64,000 bases of DNA, taken from the NCBI GenBank assembly GCA_001873215.1, contig MNYS01000002.1:28395-92394 (forward strand), in the 5' to 3' direction. This stretch comes from Candidatus Levybacteria bacterium CG2_30_37_29 (GTDB taxonomy: Bacteria; Patescibacteriota; Microgenomatia; Levybacterales; GWA1-39-11). Position numbers and translations under genes: made by a program. The notes under the pieces are model-generated. The model was not told the DNA's origin. It saw nothing but the letters and a program-made list of their open reading frames with translations, and ran no database searches. Of the stretch, positions 10,643 through 38,017 are shown piece after piece (within the stretch, counting starts at the first letter, position 1; every line of letters starts with the position of its first letter).

Positions 10643-10981
10643 TTATCTAAGTGTAGCCCCGGGTTTAACTTTTGTTGCAGGTTTAATAAGAGCCGGTTTG
10701 TCAGTGTTTGTTGCAAGTATCATAGCGTGACTTTCAAGTCCCATCATTTTTCGCGGTTCAAGATTTGTTGCAAAAATGAAAGATTTTCCAATTAAATCTT
10801 TTGGGCTGTACCATTTTGCAATTCCCGACAAAACCTGCCTGCCGGCAGGCAGGCCTACCTCGTTTTCTTCTCCAAAATCAACTTGAAGTTTTAGCAATTT
10901 TTCAGAATCTTTAATTGGTTCAGCAGATAGAATTTTCCCAACTTTTAATTCGACTTTTGCGAAATCATCAAAATTTATCAC
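10643..10981 (-). CDS. tRNA-binding protein (CsaA/Trbp111/EMAP-like OB-fold domain)
   Basis: DFAKVELKVGKI...DFGEE...RQVLSGIA...GKSFIFATNL matches the tRNA-binding-domain family. Contains the 20-nt palindrome encoding LPAGRQ. Confidence 0.8.
   Translation of the reverse strand: MINFDDFAKVELKVGKILSAEPIKDSEKLLKLQVDFGEENEVGLPAGRQVLSGIAKWYSPKDLIGKSFIFATNLEPRKMMGLESHAMILATNTDKPALIKPATKVKPGATLR
10834..10853. repeat. Perfect 20-nt palindrome CCTGCCTGCCGGCAGGCAGG, in frame inside the tRNA-binding protein gene (encodes LPAGRQ)
   Basis: Read directly from the sequence. A GC-rich island within an AT-rich CDS. Identical to the copy at 13138-13157. Confidence 0.9.
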
Positions 10982-12607: not shown

Positions 12608-13786
12608 CTACAAATAGTTTTTCCCCGGCTCAGTAACAAAAATATCGTGGGGATGACTTTCTTGAAGGGAAGATTGAGTAATTTGGATAAATTTTGCTTT
12701 TTCCCAAAGATCAAGAATTGTTTTTGCCCCCACATAATACATTCCGGATTTAATTCCCCCAATTGCTTGTTCAACGAGTTCTGTAACCGTTCCTTTCACA
12801 GGAACTAGCCCTTCAACCCCTTCTGCAACAAGAACTCTATCAGAGTAGCTTTTTCCGTGAAATTCTCCCTCAGATTTTATTTTTGCGCCTCGCTCCATAG
12901 CACCGATTGATCCCATTCCACGATACTCTTTGAACATGTATGTTTTGTGTTTTCTAAAAATACTTTTAAAACGAGAAGGGACCTGCGATTCGGAAAACCG
13001 TGTAGTTTTGCCGGGAGATTCTTCACATGTAGCAAAAAAGGATCCCATCATAACGGTTGACGCTCCAACAGCAAGTGCTTTTACAATGTCTCCAGAATAC
13101 TGAATTCCACCGTCCGCAATTACAGGAATATTTGTCTCCTGCCTGCCGGCAGGCAGGTTTCGTGCCGCGCGCACAACTTCAGTAATAGCAGTAATTTGAG
13201 GTACTCCAATTCCCGAAATTACTCGAGTGGTACAAATTGCACCCGGCCCCATACCGACGCGTAGGCAATCCGCTCCTGCACGAATTAGAGCGGAAGCTCC
13301 TTCATGCGTTGCAACACTTCCGCAAATTACATCTATTTTAAAATTGTTCTTTATGGAAGTTAGTGTTTCAATAACGCTTTTTGAAAACCCGTGTGCTGAA
13401 TCTATAACAATTACATCAACGCCTGCTTTCATCAGGGTTTCAACACGTTTTTCAAATCCGTTATTGGCTCCAATTGCCGCACCGACAAGCAATGTTTGGC
13501 CTGTCGAAGTATCTTTTTTTACTTTTCTCACTTCATTTGCTTGTTTTTCTATTGGTAAATTTCGGTGAATTATTCCAATTCCTCCAAGTTTTCCAAGAGC
13601 AATTGCAAGCTTTGATTCGGTAACCGTATCCATGGGAGAAGAAATAAATGGGATAGAAAGAGAAATATTCTTTGTAAGTTTTGTTGAAAGGTCAATTTTT
13701 TCGCGGGGAAAGTCAGTGTAATTTGGAAGAAGAAGAATGTCGTTAAAAGTAAGGCCTACTAAGAAATCTTTTTTTTGGAGTACCAT
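12608..13786 (-). CDS. guaB: IMP dehydrogenase, CBS (Bateman) domain-less form
   Basis: [12 protein letters not shown]-terminus, catalytic GIGVPQITA and [23 protein letters not shown], active-site Cys loop [10 protein letters not shown]. 392 aa: the roughly 110-aa CBS pair is missing between EVRKVKK and LLVGAAIG. Contains the 20-nt palindrome encoding LPAGRQ. Confidence 0.85.
13138..13157. repeat. Perfect 20-nt palindrome CCTGCCTGCCGGCAGGCAGG, in frame inside guaB (encodes LPAGRQ)
   Basis: Read directly from the sequence. Lies in the loop just N-terminal to IPVIADGG, where this protein has about 4-6 more residues than E. coli GuaB. Confidence 0.9.
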
Positions 13787-13843: not shown

Positions 13844-13870
13844 CAGAAAACCCCGATTTAATCGGGGATA
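13844..13870 (-). terminator. Rho-independent terminator (CCCCGATTAAATCGGGG followed by TTTTCT) downstream of the methyltransferase gene
   Basis: The minus strand reads ATCCCCGATTAAATCGGGGTTTTCTGC: a 7-bp GC-rich stem, 3-nt loop and U-run. A second perfect hairpin, CCGCGGGTgtcaACCCGCGG, lies at 13930-13949 right after the stop codon. Confidence 0.55.
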
Positions 13871-13953
13871 AATGCTAAGAAATTTCTGCTTCGGCGGATT
13901 TCGCTCAGCCGGACAAAGTGGAGAAGATACCGCGGGTGTCAACCCGCGGAGCT

Positions 13954-34348: not shown

Positions 34349-34461
34349 GCAGGGTAAAAAGAAAAACGACAGTTATCCCACAAATTTATCTTGTGACCCC
34401 ACAGGAATTTAGATCAAAATAACTATTGTAATTAAATTTTTACGGTGTTAATAATAAGAAT

Positions 34462-34929
34462 ATGGCTAAGTTGATGAAAGATTTGTCACCTCGTCGACAA
34501 GTGATTTATTGGATTACGGAATTTGCAGCATTTGATACCGAAAGGAGAGAAAGTAACAAAATGAAGCTTTATGATCTCCACGAAGTGGACTTACTGAAGA
34601 AATTGACTGCGATGACAAATTTTCCGAAAGTTTTTCTAACCAAAGATAAAGATATTTTTAATAACTTCGTAACATTTCTAGAAGTCTTTTCAAATTCTAT
34701 TAATGAAACCGATAAGATTGCCAAAGAAGGTCCAGTAATAGAGTCAAGCGAAAGCCTTGCAAGCTGTCAGTATCTCTTATCACTTGCCGGAGGCATAATA
34801 TCTAGTAGGGGGTTTGATAAATTGTTAACAAACGATAGAAGGAAAGCGTTAGTTAAGAGTTTGAGAGAATCGAGATTGGTACTTTCGAATAAAATTGATG
34901 CAGCCACAGACTACCTGAATATTCGTTAG
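34462..34929 (+). CDS. Hypothetical soluble protein (155 aa)
   Basis: No family recognised. Its 3' end abuts repeat copy 2. Confidence 0.4.
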   Translation: MAKLMKDLSPRRQVIYWITEFAAFDTERRESNKMKLYDLHEVDLLKKLTAMTNFPKVFLTKDKDIFNNFVTFLEVFSNSINETDKIAKEGPVIESSESLASCQYLLSLAGGIISSRGFDKLLTNDRRKALVKSLRESRLVLSNKIDAATDYLNIR

Positions 34930-34955
34930 ACTAGGACTAAAAAACAATACTCAAC

Positions 34956-34974
34956 CGAGGTGCCACCTCAAATA
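34956..34974. repeat. Copy 2 of palindromic motif CGAGGTGCCACCTCAA
   Basis: Read directly from the sequence; see 33519. Confidence 0.6.
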
Positions 34975-35045
34975 GATTCAAATCTCCTTATTTACCTATT
35001 AGTAATTTTGGTGATAGGAAATTTAGGTAATTGAATTACGAGCAG

Positions 35046-35330
35046 TTATTTAGATTTGGGTTTAAAAATTCGTGTTATAACAACACATGATACACAATAA
35101 GAGATAATAAATAAACCAATCGTGTATAAATTTAGTATAAAATGGTTTTGTGGAAAAAGATAACAAATAAAAGGTTTAGGCGGAGGGGAATATGGAGTTC
35201 CGTCAAGAGAGGGTATGCGTAGATCAAGACTTATGCAGGGACTCCGTAAAATACCAAGTACTACCCAAAATATAACTAAGAAAAACATCCAGGCAATGAT
35301 TTTCTTCAGTGTCGGTTTAAAAAACTTCAC
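35046..35330 (-). CDS. Hypothetical small membrane protein (94 aa)
   Basis: Two TM helices. No family recognised. Confidence 0.4.
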   Translation of the reverse strand: MKFFKPTLKKIIAWMFFLVIFWVVLGILRSPCISLDLRIPSLDGTPYSPPPKPFICYLFPQNHFILNLYTIGLFIISYCVSCVVITRIFKPKSK

Positions 35331-35550
35331 TACTTAGTATATGTGTAAATTTAATTTTATGTCAAATATATTTGGTGACCCGACATCATCTCTCTTCGAA
35401 TCATCTTTAGCATGGTTAGAACGTTTACGAAAAGTTTATCTTGACGAAAAAATAGATATATGTGAAGGAGTAAGTGGATATTAACCCGTTTTTAGATTAC
35501 TTTTGATCATTAGCGTGTACTCAATACTTAATTTGTAGTAAAATCACACA

Positions 35551-36624
35551 ATGAATATACGAGAACGAGCTGAGGTAGAGCTTGGTATACAAAATGTTGA
35601 CGCATTTACAGCCTCCTTTGGATCTAAATGTCCTGATGCAATGCAAGCATTGCCAAAAGAAGAATTTGAACCTGCCCAAGCTGCCTTTACTGAAGCCTTT
35701 GAAGATGCCGCAGGACTGACACAAATCGATCCAAGCAAGTTTTTTATAGCTAGAGTTAAAGACAGGGTGGTTAGACGCGAATATTATAGACCTACGCCTC
35801 AGGATGAAGATTCATTTAGGTTTGCGCCTCAGGCATTATGTGAGGTAGGAATTATCAAGGGAAGATTTGGGGTGAACATTGAATGGAGGCACGATGCAAA
35901 TTTCAGACGAGATTCACTAACAGTTTTCCCCTTTGATGACGAAATGAAACTTAGATTAAAACCCGGAGAAGAGCTATCTGTTGACTGGAAACAAGGGCTA
36001 GTCTCGAGTATTGAGCTAAAAACACACAAAGTAGAAAATGGTAAACCCCAATTACACAATGCGTTTGCCACACTCAACATGTTTGGTGATGCGCAAAACA
36101 AAGGGAATGTAAACTATTGGAAAAGCAACTGGGAAAGGAGATTTCAAAGAGTAATCGACCTAGATTATTTAAGGGCAAATCCCAGGACAAGGGATGAAAT
36201 GGATAAGTCTATGGAAATAATGGCTAGAACAGACACGGGGTTAGGAGATTATCCATATACACCGATAAACTTATTGCATCTAGAAAGAAATTTAGACGAT
36301 GGAGAGATAACGATAAATCAAATAAATGTTAATTCTGAAGATGCTAACTCAGAAACAGGAATCACTATTGAAAGATTTGATTCTCCAGAACGAGAAGAAC
36401 TTTTAGATAGTATTTTTATTCCAGAACCTTTCAATCCCCTAGCTTTAATCGCAACAATATTTCAAAGAAACATGTTGAATCAACCTGAAAACTCTCCATT
36501 GGCTTATGATAGAGAATGGCTAAATCAACATTCAATTGTAAGAGAATTAATTGAGTTGAAGTGGATTCGCCACGATATTGACCCGCTCAGGAAATTTTCA
36601 CAAACTAGTTCTGATAGTCTGTAA
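35551..36624 (+). CDS. Hypothetical protein (357 aa), compositionally more GC-rich than its neighbours
   Basis: Long ORF with good coding look. Acidic. No recognisable motifs. Confidence 0.5.
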   Translation: MNIRERAEVELGIQNVDAFTASFGSKCPDAMQALPKEEFEPAQAAFTEAFEDAAGLTQIDPSKFFIARVKDRVVRREYYRPTPQDEDSFRFAPQALCEVGIIKGRFGVNIEWRHDANFRRDSLTVFPFDDEMKLRLKPGEELSVDWKQGLVSSIELKTHKVENGKPQLHNAFATLNMFGDAQNKGNVNYWKSNWERRFQRVIDLDYLRANPRTRDEMDKSMEIMARTDTGLGDYPYTPINLLHLERNLDDGEITINQINVNSEDANSETGITIERFDSPEREELLDSIFIPEPFNPLALIATIFQRNMLNQPENSPLAYDREWLNQHSIVRELIELKWIRHDIDPLRKFSQTSSDSL

Positions 36625-36747
36625 CCCGTGTTAATTGTTTGAACCAGAAATGAGGCTAAAGATTTTTATACAAGAAATACTAGACAATAACTCTTCAAAA
36701 AATCTGAGCTTAGCGGTTCGAACACCTTGCCTAGGTGCTCCCTTCGG

Positions 36748-36820
36748 TGACCCCACAGGAATTCGAATCCTGGTTCCCAGAATGAGAATCTGGTGTCCTA
36801 GGCCACTAGACGATGGGGCC
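36748..36820 (-). tRNA. tRNA-Glu (anticodon CTC), no encoded CCA
   Basis: Manual fold: acceptor GGCCCCA/TGGGGTC (one G-U pair), D-stem GTCT/GGAC, anticodon stem CCAGA/TCTGG with loop TTCTCAT, T-arm CAGGA-TTCGAAT-TCCTG, discriminator A. Confidence 0.75.
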
Positions 36821-37057
36821 ATTAATTAATTTTTCAATTACCTTCTTACTTTTCAACGATTTAAGATAATATTCTCTTTTTTTAGCTTCAGAATTAGTAT
36901 TATATTCTTCTTTGTATGATAGTTCAAACGGTCCCTTATTTTTAGTATATCGCGAACGGTTCGAATTATGTTCTGCAATTCTTCTTTCTAAATTATTTGT
37001 ACTGCCAATATAAAACATTCCGTTTTTTATACTTCTTAGAATATATAAGAAATACAT
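36806..37057 (-). CDS. Small GIY-YIG nuclease (URI domain only; COG2827/YhbQ-like)
   Basis: MYFLYILRSIKNGMFYIGSTNNLERRIAEHN is a canonical GIY-YIG core. 83 aa. The last 5 codons (NGPIV) and the stop are made from the first 15 nt of the tRNA-Glu gene. Confidence 0.75.
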   Translation of the reverse strand: MYFLYILRSIKNGMFYIGSTNNLERRIAEHNSNRSRYTKNKGPFELSYKEEYNTNSEAKKREYYLKSLKSKKVIEKLINGPIV

Positions 37058-37059
37058 AT

Positions 37060-37138
37060 TGGTGTCCTAGGTCACTAGCCTCGATGATCGCAGTCATCGG
37101 GATCCCGAATGAAAACTATCATCGGGAACGATGGGGCC
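37060..37138 (-). pseudogene. Duplicated 5' fragment of tRNA-Glu (positions 1-30) interrupted by a 49-nt structured insertion
   Basis: GGCCCCATCGT [TCCCGATGATAGTTTTCATTCGGGATCCCGATGACTGCGATCATCGAGG] CTAGTGACCTAGGACACCA compares with the intact tRNA GGCCCCATCGTCTAGTGGCCTAGGACACCA. One substitution. The insertion contains two hairpins. The GIY-YIG start codon follows 2 nt later. Confidence 0.65.
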
Positions 37139-37228
37139 AAGTAGCCCCTTATTTTACTAGAAATAGGTTAAATTCACAAGAAAAATATAGAGTGGAGTTT
37201 ATTTTTTCTTCTATGTATAATAAAAGTT

Positions 37229-38017
37229 ATGAAAAAGACAAACTTGGACAATTTCTTGCTTTCCGTTGTTATCCCCTCATATAACGAAATGGGGAATCTT
37301 CAAAAGGGAACTCTTGATAAAGTAGAGCATTATCTTGAGAAAAATAAGTTTAATTACGAAGTTTTGGTAGTCGATGACGGATCAACCGATGGAAGTCTTG
37401 AATTTGTCAAAAAGTTTTCCCGCGAAAATCCCAAATTTAAAGTCGTAGAAAACAACCATACGGGGAAAGCAGGAGCTGTAACAGCGGGGGTTTTGAAAGC
37501 TGCAGGAGATTATATACTTTTTACGGATATGGATCAGGCAACACCGATTGAGGAAATTGAAAAGATTTTGCCGTTTACAAAGGCCATGCCTGCCGGCAGG
37601 CAGGAATTCGATATTGTTATCGGCTCGCGAAATAACACAAGGCGCGGCGCGCCATTCTCAAGAAAATTAATGGCCAAAGGGATGATTGTTCTACGTTCTC
37701 TTCTCGTCGGTTTTCCGGAAATTAAGGATACGCAGTGCGGATTTAAGCTTTTTACAAAAAAATCCGCCCGAGAAATTTTTGAGAAAATGTTAAATTTGCA
37801 CGGAGGATTTAAGTCTATAAAGAATTCAAGTGTTACGGCAGGATTTGATGTAGAACTTTTGTATATCGGCACACGACTTGGGTATAAAATTAAAGAAGTC
37901 CCGGTAGAGTGGTTATATGTTGAGACAAGAAGAGTGAATCCGATAAAGGATTCGTTGGACGGCTTTTTAGATCTTGTAAGAATCCGTGGAAGAATTTTAA
38001 AAGGACGGTATGGGTAG
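37229..38017 (+). CDS. GT2 glycosyltransferase (polyprenyl-phosphate sugar synthase, DPM/DPG-synthase-like)
   Basis: VVIPSYNE...VLVVDDGSTDGS, DMD and DIVIGSR motifs. Contains the third palindrome copy (MPAGRQ). Confidence 0.8.
   Translation: MKKTNLDNFLLSVVIPSYNEMGNLQKGTLDKVEHYLEKNKFNYEVLVVDDGSTDGSLEFVKKFSRENPKFKVVENNHTGKAGAVTAGVLKAAGDYILFTDMDQATPIEEIEKILPFTKAMPAGRQEFDIVIGSRNNTRRGAPFSRKLMAKGMIVLRSLLVGFPEIKDTQCGFKLFTKKSAREIFEKMLNLHGGFKSIKNSSVTAGFDVELLYIGTRLGYKIKEVPVEWLYVETRRVNPIKDSLDGFLDLVRIRGRILKGRYG
37585..37604. repeat. Third copy (18/20) of the GC-rich palindrome, in frame inside the GT2 gene (encodes MPAGRQ)
   Basis: CATGCCTGCCGGCAGGCAGG, with the perfect palindromic core TGCCTGCCGGCAGGCA. 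Same reading frame relative to the palindrome as the other two copies. Confidence 0.85.

Follow-up and report, generated by a model that had tools for sequence, protein, structure and literature searches.

Mobile open reading frames (ORFs) of fungal mitochondria are free-standing LAGLIDADG or GIY-YIG nuclease genes that reside in atp6, atp9, cox2 or nad3 and bring with them a foreign version of the gene end they displace, as seen in Allomyces atp6 and in Glomus (PMC3630166). Here we describe an arrangement in a bacterium that appears to follow similar lines. In a 64,000-nucleotide (nt) stretch of DNA from Candidatus Levybacteria bacterium CG2_30_37_29 (contig MNYS01000002.1; the whole stretch is hereafter called the window, and positions are 1-based within it), a gene encoding a GIY-YIG nuclease of 83 amino acids (aa) lies between an intact tRNA-Glu(CTC) gene and a second, hairpin-disrupted copy of the 5' part of that gene. 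We consider it reasonably likely that this arrangement represents a small element, probably a selfish one, that is present as an intact copy within the 5' portion of the tRNA-Glu(CTC) gene. As in the mitochondrial mobile ORFs, the endonuclease ORF lies inside a host gene, a replacement gene end is supplied and the native end persists close by as a duplicate. In both cases presence varies between relatives, and the ORF is (here presumably) co-transcribed with the host gene. The differences are that the target is a bacterial tRNA gene of which either the 5' or the 3' end is duplicated, that the protein is a catalytic domain of 80-90 aa, of the UPF0213/SLX1 branch, which lacks a DNA-binding domain, and that the replacement copy is undiverged from the target and the displaced copy bears conserved GC hairpins.

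A second system for comparison is SegB, a GIY-YIG nuclease that belongs to the free-standing Seg-type homing endonucleases of T-even phages and is encoded in their tRNA gene cluster. It reportedly cleaves tRNA-containing DNA and is reportedly required for tandem amplification of tRNA genes together with segB (PMC13096335, citing Brok-Volchanskaya 2008). SegB is a larger phage protein having a DNA-binding part, and neither hairpin modules nor interrupted tRNA copies are described for it. The likeness is that a nuclease gene lies beside tRNA genes and forms tandem repeats of tRNA plus nuclease gene through microhomology of the tRNA 5' end to the 3' end of the nuclease gene. Such repeats resemble the arrays at three of the loci compared below (L038, L063 and L065; L-numbers are locus labels) and the overlap of ORF and tRNA.

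tRNA genes are classic integration sites. The integrative elements that target them carry part of the tRNA, regenerate the gene and leave direct repeats of the tRNA end on both sides, as in the arrangement described here. Unlike those elements, the present insert has no integrase, is only about 318 nt in all and often duplicates the tRNA 5' end. An example of the integrase type seems to be present at the 3' end of this same tRNA.

The hairpins within the disrupted tRNA copy invite comparison with tiny repeated elements. Palindromic elements in Rickettsia protein genes, small dispersed repeats of cyanobacteria and double-hairpin elements of Allomyces mitochondrial DNA have reportedly been described, by Ogata in 2000, Elhai in 2008 and Paquin in 2000, respectively. 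The REPIN/RAYT system (PMC3116915) likewise consists of short, dispersed GC hairpin repeats that are enriched beside one small nuclease gene and, as in other tiny hairpin elements, some copies lie in frame in protein genes, occur in both orientations or are nested. It differs in that the nuclease here is of the GIY-YIG type rather than an HUH (Y1) tyrosine transposase, and in that the modules here are two tandem hairpins having identical TCCCGA/TCGGGA feet and a strong link to tRNA fragments. Further analogues are the GC clusters of yeast mitochondria (PMC4478555) and the repetitive hairpin elements of sponges (PMC2800124).

The best matches to the window protein in both sequence and fold are the UPF0213/YhbQ/COG2827 proteins and SLX1. 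In eukaryotes SLX1 together with SLX4 cuts branched DNA. No description of a function or a tRNA association of the bacterial UPF0213/YhbQ/COG2827 proteins was found in the literature searched, which did not include subscription journals. Likewise, that literature gave no account in which small bacterial GIY-YIG genes are linked with tRNA genes, with duplicated ends of the tRNAs and with hairpin modules.

Results

A GIY-YIG gene between two copies of a tRNA 5' end

All parts of the locus lie on the minus strand and are given here from 5' to 3'. A promoter-like site (TTGTGA-17-TAAAAT, 37151..37179, 9/12 consensus match), which may serve as the promoter, ends 12 nt upstream of a displaced copy of the tRNA 5' end. 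This copy is in two parts. Nucleotides 1-11 (GGCCCCATCGT, 37128..37138, the "left" copy) match 11/11, and when nt -1 is included the repeat is 12/12 (37128-37139 equals 36810-36821, tRNA nt -1 to 11). Between nt 11 and 12 is a 49-nt module (37079..37127), which upon folding gives two predicted hairpins, hp1 (TCCCGATGATAGTTTTCATTCGGGA, 37103-37127) and hp2 (TCCCGATGACTGCGATCATCGAGG, 37079-37102), having the identical feet TCCCGA...TCGGGA. Nucleotides 12-30 (CTAGTGaCCTAGGACACCA, 37060..37078) then match 36791-36809 at 18/19 positions (95%) and include the sequence AGGA, a possible ribosome-binding site 8 nt ahead of the ATG. The dinucleotide AT separates the displaced copy from the start of the 83-aa nuclease gene (36806..37057), which encodes a catalytic domain only. 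The ORF ends ...N-G-P-I-V-stop, and these last codons (GGC CCC ATC GTC TAG) are nt 1-15 of the intact tRNA-Glu(CTC), called at 36746..36820 by ARAGORN and at 36748-36820 by the Rfam tRNA model (RF00005, 56.1 bits, threshold 29). Hence, one copy of nt 1-30 is fused to the ORF end and completes a normal tRNA, and the other is left by the promoter, broken by the hairpins.

A preliminary description made from the DNA sequence had proposed the intact minus-strand tRNA-Glu(CTC), the second copy of nt 1-30 split by a 49-nt insert, the folding of that insert into two hairpins and the start of a GIY-YIG gene 2 nt after the fragment. All of these held upon base-by-base alignment, folding and model searches. 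It had also derived the last five codons and the stop codon of the ORF from tRNA nt 1-15; the overlap and the stop stand, with four codons rather than five. Its alternative, that the fragment is a half-tRNA-like RNA, found no support: tRNA was the sole family matched in an Rfam scan of 36000-38000 at E<=1, and the upstream fragment gave no tRNA call. The same scan matched no intron family and the downstream tRNA is uninterrupted, and a group I intron in the tRNA was rejected. We estimate the chance expectation of an in-register 12-mer plus a 19-mer having one mismatch within 320 nt to be well under 1e-4; chance is not a credible source of the tRNA repeats. No second copy of the 49-nt hairpin sequence was found in the window within 3 mismatches, nor was one found in 100 shuffles.

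A second promoter-like site lies inside the GIY-YIG ORF (36899-36927, minus strand, TTGAAC-17-TATAAT, 10/12), about 80 nt upstream of the tRNA, and could drive the tRNA independently of the ORF. Promoter-like matches are frequent in this AT-rich DNA (5 found versus 2.3 expected).

Empty sites in relatives

The element is neighbored by a glycosyltransferase gene (37229-38017, plus strand) for which close homologues were found. Two relatives having orthologues of this gene (L081, 87% aa identity, and L083, 74%) carry an uninterrupted tRNA-Glu(CTC) at the same distance from it, and the L083 tRNA is 100% identical to that of the window. At these glycosyltransferase-adjacent genes we found no ORF, no fragment and no hairpin; the order is a -10-like TAAAAT, 10-11 nt and then tRNA nt 1. 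The promoter-like site of the window occupies the position relative to the glycosyltransferase gene that the tRNA promoter has in the empty-site relatives. From this spacing the left 11-nt copy of the window sits at the native tRNA start, and an insertion of about 318 nt separates the tRNA promoter from the tRNA body. The boundaries of the insertion were taken from the sequences themselves, MAFFT gap placement being misleading. Thus, the arrangement is not always present, and the earlier proposal of a GIY-YIG insertion into the tRNA 5' part with regeneration of the tRNA is borne out by the empty sites and by the same layout at 64/80 loci (see below).

The same glycosyltransferase-adjacent locus is occupied in L001, L009, L010 and L073, the ORF being frameshifted in L073. 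Relative to the window the L001 ORF is 76% and the glycosyltransferase 67% identical, and the corresponding values for L073 are 59% and 71%. As judged from these sequences, similarity of the ORFs at this locus does not follow that of the hosts, and this ORF-versus-host incongruence is the sole support for transfer. In a tree of the ORFs the CTC and TTC isoacceptor loci are intermixed; otherwise the ORFs group by tRNA type.

The layout is a family trait

We compared 80 genomic loci of GIY-YIG homologues from many phyla. Homologues are plentiful in Microgenomates (Levy-, Davies- and Gottesmanbacteria). The C-termini of nearly all homologues read G[PAS][IF]V, AAIV or similar or, in another frame, ...APSSSG. 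These are translations of tRNA 5' ends, tails such as GPIV, GAFV and AAIV being encoded by tRNA nt 1-12. A same-strand tRNA abuts the ORF at 64 of the 80 loci, the ORF being directly upstream of the tRNA in 38 and directly downstream in 26. A partial copy of the abutting tRNA is found across the ORF at no fewer than 46/80 loci, and a perfect hairpin is present at the inner end of the partial copy in at least 28/80. In 18 Microgenomates loci the stop codon is exactly 14 nt into tRNA-Glu (CTC or TTC anticodon). The partner in Saccharibacteria is tRNA-Gln, and in Bacteroidota, Balneolaceae, Ignavibacteria and Desulfobacterota the ORF comes after tRNA-Ser, Asp, Pro, His or Ile. Overall the partner tRNAs are Glu, Gln, Ser, Asp, Pro, Met, Asn, His, Ile, Ala, Gly, Thr, Val and Phe.

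Most partial tRNA copies are broken by GC hairpins having related feet. The tRNA-Glu copies have two TCCCGA hairpins between nt 11 and 12, the tRNA-Gln copies have TCCGCC...GGCGGA in place of D-loop nt 11-18, the tRNA-Asp copies have TCCCGC...GCGGGA in place of the anticodon arm, and the tRNA-Ser copies have TGCCnnnGGCA plus TCCCnnnGGGA in the T loop or the anticodon loop. The combination of ORF, tRNA, partial copy and hairpins is a family trait rather than a one-off.

The ORF is frameshifted in L073 and those of L062 and L003 look truncated. Units of fragment plus hairpin that lack an ORF are found in L164, L166, L167 and L154, with an ORF remnant in L164, and tandem arrays are found in L038, L063 and L065. 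Frameshifted or truncated ORFs, ORF-less units and arrays are decay products typical of selfish elements. We rejected the L065 array as a case of repeated insertion: it is a 698-nt segmental duplication that includes native flank, so unequal recombination suffices. Tandem ORF-less units of about 80 nt were also seen upstream of intact tRNA-Asp or tRNA-Ile genes (L038 2182-2497, L043 2693-2856 and L076 2814-2884), each unit being a tRNA 5' part in which nucleotides of the anticodon arm or loop are replaced by a TCCCGC or TCCGCC hairpin.

At the other end of the window tRNA, a 17-nt exact repeat of tRNA-Glu nt 58-74 (34393-34409, minus strand) brackets 34410-36745, which contains two ORFs (357 aa and 155 aa), neither of which has a Pfam match. 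The segment 34393-36745 resembles what would remain of an island that had integrated at the tRNA 3' end. In L081 and L083 genes encoding a large serine recombinase and TrwB/TraG-like proteins abut the same tRNA 3' end.

These neighbors bear on the explanation that the duplicated 5' part is itself inert, an att-like repeat of an integrase island or a chance tandem duplication, in which the GIY-YIG gene is cargo and the hairpins are terminators or REP-like sequences. That the same tRNA has a repeat of its 3' end 2.35 kb downstream, and that recombinase and conjugation genes abut this end in relatives, is what such an explanation would lead one to find. The 318-nt insert itself contains no integrase, the GIY-YIG gene is the sole ORF there having a domain match, and the hairpins lack T-tracts and covary. 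Moreover, the combination of 5'-end duplication, ORF and hairpins is reproduced at dozens of independent tRNA loci. This recurrence brings the inert remnant close to refutation, and we regard it as very unlikely.

The left copy behaves as a fossil

For 19 tRNA-Glu loci we compared the left 11-nt copy with the 5' end of the functional tRNA. The two match in 11/19 loci and differ in 8/19. In seven of the eight discordant loci all 7 positions of the functional 5' end are paired to the 3' strand of the same tRNA, the exception being L017 (5/7). The left copy pairs at only 4-5 of the 7 positions in most discordant loci and still at 7/7 in L030. Pairing is kept in the functional end and mostly lost in the left copy, and hence the left copy behaves as a fossil, either of an older state of the tRNA or of a different tRNA-Glu. 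Simple homing following a cut at tRNA 11/12, in which the left copy would be of recipient type and the right 5' end of donor type, was rejected as the full account, as L014 and L002 do not follow it cleanly; their pattern is equally explained by divergence after an old insertion.

The L017 tRNA-Glu (595-668) has a mismatched acceptor stem (5' GGCCCCA versus 3' TAGCGTC, 5/7 pairs). It could be a chimera from recent 5'-end replacement, or an assembly chimera.

Double-hairpin modules

The preliminary description had noted that the tRNA copy is split by the 49-nt insert. This split is not random: about 18 related loci have a double hairpin at the same place in the tRNA (11/12), and its stems show compensatory changes. 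Across the 19 Glu loci the feet are kept and the inner stems vary with compensation, double changes being found in 7/15 predicted pairs. G-U pairs far outnumber A-C pairs in these stems, a bias that suggests single-strand folding of the sense strand, as would occur in a transcript. At the same tRNA-Glu site L011 and L020 carry the entire module in inverted orientation, and hp1 of L001 is the exact reverse complement (26/26) of hp2 of L011 and L020. Modules are shuffled between loci and nested in each other's loops.

Directly downstream of the ORF-tRNA pair in L020 (3324-3446) and L011 (3340-3431) is a second tRNA-Glu whose sole interruption is an inverted module at nt 11/12. The L020 copy is full-length and the L011 copy lacks nt 1-5; ARAGORN mis-called the start of this tRNA inside the hairpin.

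Two roles for the hairpins within the tRNA were tried and rejected. As a test of a removable tRNA intron the modules were deleted from all loci and ARAGORN was rerun, which gave one extra full-length tRNA (L020 tRNA-B), the other extra calls being tRNA-Ser variable arms or terminators. An alternative pairing of tRNA nt 6-10 with hp1 was not conserved across loci.

A metagenome scan for the module pattern gave, among the matches listed, at least 87 modules in the 80 metagenome loci analysed, and the counts in this paragraph are likewise among the matches listed. A GIY-YIG gene plus a tRNA (Glu, Met, Phe, Thr, Asn, Val, Ala or Gly) lies within 900 nt of 13/87 modules. A further 14/87 have a tRNA and no GIY-YIG gene, and those examined are ORF-less units of fragment plus hairpin. 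The remaining 60/87 have neither gene within 900 nt, and 18 of those 60 lie inside long ORFs and have lengths that are multiples of 3. By our own count most in-ORF modules are 36-45 nt when the complete foot is included, a multiple of three. Modules of the form TCCCGAC..GTCGGGA x2 were seen in long ORFs (up to 949 aa) in L100, L125, L132, L137, L143, L145, L150, L160, L162, L170 and L178. Apparently these are tolerated in-frame insertions in proteins of uncultivated bacteria. In the 6-kb loci chosen for their GIY-YIG gene, more than 90% of hairpin-pattern matches adjoin the ORF. By sequence, then, the 49-nt insert is assigned to a dispersed family of double-hairpin elements.

A perfect palindrome, CCTGCCTGCCGGCAGGCAGG, is found in frame in protein genes of the window at 10834-10853 and 13138-13157, with a 16-nt form at 37587-37604, and encodes [LM]PAGRQ. 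The genes bearing it are an ORF at 10643-10981 (minus strand), an IMP-dehydrogenase-like ORF at 12608-13786 (minus strand) and the glycosyltransferase gene next to the element. In the glycosyltransferase it forms a 7-aa insert that is present in the window protein and in homologues P0121 and P0129 and missing from four other homologues. The 20-mer CCTGCCTGCCGGCAGGCAGG is also the hairpin that breaks a tRNA-Asn copy at an Omnitrophota locus (L051). Two GC hairpins, CCCCGATTTAATCGGGG (13851-13867) and CCGCGGGTGTCAACCCGCGG (13930-13949), lie in a 167-nt spacer between two minus-strand genes; the feet of the first resemble those of hp2 of L073. These may be further modules or ordinary terminators.

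The dispersal of the modules raises an explanation that puts the hairpin first: the module would be the primary mobile unit, mobilised in trans by the SLX1-like GIY-YIG protein in the manner of RAYT and REPIN. Modules would enter tRNA arms, and an insertion would survive only where a duplication restores the tRNA, hence the position of the gene beside tRNAs. Modules away from both tRNA and GIY-YIG genes (60/87 among the matches listed, 18 of them in long ORFs) are consistent with this, as is their strong enrichment beside GIY-YIG genes (more than 90% of matches near the ORF in the 6-kb loci; 13/87 among the matches listed). So are the three in-frame palindromes of the window, one of which is an indel polymorphism among homologues, the recurrence of the 20-mer in the L051 tRNA-Asn copy, the presence of both module orientations at one tRNA-Glu site, the nesting and shuffling of modules, and the presence of SLX1, a branched-DNA nuclease, among the closest solved folds. 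Set against these are the feet, which are TCCCGA in the module by the window gene and CCTGCC in the protein-gene palindromes, and the fixed 11/12 position throughout the Glu clade, which fits inheritance with the element equally well. GIY-YIG enzymes are hydrolytic nucleases that are not known to carry out strand transfer, and this also counts against a hairpin-first origin. We think such an origin unlikely, although it is the chief rival to the selfish-element reading.

The small GIY-YIG protein

The 83-aa protein matched Pfam GIY-YIG (PF01541) over residues 1-71 with a score of 73.5 bits (cut-off 22.6) and an E-value of 1.8e-20. In an alignment of 29 homologues four residues never vary (Y16, R26, H30 and E62), and conservation of Y5 is at least 90%. 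We take the conserved Tyr (GIY), Tyr (YIG), Arg, His and Glu residues to have catalytic roles by analogy with I-TevI. The AlphaFold model (pLDDT 89) consists of the GIY-YIG core (beta-beta-alpha-beta-alpha) and one helix only. Given the intact ORF, the confident GIY-YIG fold and the conserved motif residues, the terms "scar" and "degenerate cassette" used in the preliminary description do not apply.

The closest solved relatives by sequence are 1zg2 (E=2.2e-14, 35% identity), 1ywl (1.2e-11), SLX1 (4xlg, 5e-5) and I-TevI (1mk0, 5e-3), the identity to the SLX1 nuclease domain being 27-32%. Fold matching ranked 1zg2 first, then SLX1, then I-TevI, and UvrC-N was also matched. Hence, the UPF0213 proteins BH0048 and EF2693 are the nearest solved relatives, ahead of SLX1, with I-TevI and UvrC after. 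Sequence and model place the window protein in the UPF0213/YhbQ-SLX1 branch rather than with I-TevI-type enzymes; NCBIfam and PHROGs gave weak "homing endonuclease" matches. By analogy with SLX1, and considering the co-located hairpins, the protein may cleave branched or hairpin DNA in a structure-specific manner. Carriage by phage was considered and rejected: viral contigs gave only distant N-terminal GIY-YIG matches and no close relative of the window protein.

Age of the element and possible host function

Several observations weigh against a selfish mobile element. The exact protein is found on 17 contigs, all of which represent one locus having the same structure, and a strain having a 99% identical glycosyltransferase is also occupied by the same structure. 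The search for a strain-level empty site therefore failed in that strain and in all 17 contigs; the element is fixed in this species in all sampled populations. Beyond the exact protein the nearest homologue is 77% identical, and no sign of recent transfer was seen in the form of near-identical copies at other sites or in other hosts. Two orthologous sets of loci, the glycosyltransferase-adjacent CTC locus and the TTC locus of L004, L005, L007, L012, L013 and L018, each have the element in several genomes. This agrees with prolonged vertical descent and means that many insertions are old; a function useful to the host could account for ORFs remaining intact for so long. The intact tRNA beside the ORF is the same as the empty-site tRNA, so this copy shows no visible immunity to self-cleavage, and the left copy is the one disrupted by the hairpins. 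Loci L002 and L014 do not separate a native from an element-borne tRNA copy. With 60/87 modules (among the matches listed) lacking a GIY-YIG gene or tRNA nearby, the hairpin is not exclusive to the element. Finally, no Pfam domain other than GIY-YIG and no DNA-binding domain was found in the sequence or the model, which makes the protein unlike sequence-specific homing endonucleases. The element looks old in this lineage and mostly vertical, with occasional loss or replacement.

Some of these points would suit a host function, in which the GIY-YIG protein is a conserved partner in tRNA operons (for example, in DNA repair or in tRNA-gene amplification at highly transcribed loci), the hairpin-bearing tRNA-like leader is a regulatory or stabilising untranslated region, and the arrangement is ancestral and not mobile. 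Fixation in all sampled populations and occupied orthologous loci in several genomes agree with this, as do intact ORFs whose motif residues are invariant or nearly so across phyla, hairpins under structural selection (G-U far above A-C), an ORF divergence roughly on par with that of neighboring host genes, and the precedent of SegB, a GIY-YIG nuclease by tRNA genes which can benefit its carrier via their amplification (PMC13096335). Yet close relatives have an identical tRNA at the same locus without the element, the tRNA partner varies by lineage and the ORF may be on either side of the tRNA. Derivatives that are pseudogenised or lack the ORF are common, as are tandem arrays; gene-end duplication is characteristic of insertions and not of operon design; and the two module orientations argue against a fixed RNA role. 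We consider a host function of this kind improbable.

Discussion

The reading that we prefer, a small and probably selfish element lodged in the 5' portion of the tRNA-Glu(CTC) gene, can be given a mechanism in conditional form. The nuclease would break an unoccupied tRNA gene, and repair would then copy in the element with an occupied gene as template, the flanking tRNA-derived sequences providing the homology. The duplicated tRNA end would keep the essential tRNA functional, and the ORF and tRNA would be co-transcribed from the tRNA promoter. The double hairpin would be the cis site or substrate of a nuclease of the structure-specific type, or else a separate mini-element that has colonised the redundant tRNA copy. 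By analogy we infer that the element works like the mobile ORFs of fungal mitochondria and free-standing homing endonucleases. We say "works like" because the protein lacks a DNA-binding module and no recent copies were seen, rather than placing the element within the homing-endonuclease class. The movement that we infer for it is not recent.

A broader proposal is offered tentatively, as a possibility short of a probability: that GIY-YIG proteins of this kind and double-hairpin modules of 35-85 nt together constitute an unrecognised class of bacterial mobile DNA. The nuclease would recognise folded hairpins rather than sequence and would mobilise them into tRNA arms and, in frame, into protein genes in the Candidate Phyla Radiation and several other phyla, its own gene being kept by lodging in tRNA genes that are repaired with a duplicated end. 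The link between hairpin and nuclease is the part of the finding that could prove categorically new. If such a class is real, it would give the UPF0213/YhbQ family its first function.

If the selfish-element reading is true, it would provide a testable role for the very widespread family of tiny GIY-YIG proteins (UPF0213/COG2827), which has had no known function so far, and would account for partial tRNA genes and fragments resembling tRNAs, of a kind that confuses annotation. In practical terms it would improve the annotation of tRNAs and pseudo-tRNAs and supply a new candidate structure-guided nuclease. It would also tie in with the mini hairpin elements that lie in frame in the proteins of ultra-small bacteria, as a source of protein indels and possibly of parts for genome engineering. 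Moreover, the strategy by which a nuclease brings along a replacement gene end would reach beyond fungal mitochondria to the tRNA genes of bacteria in many phyla.

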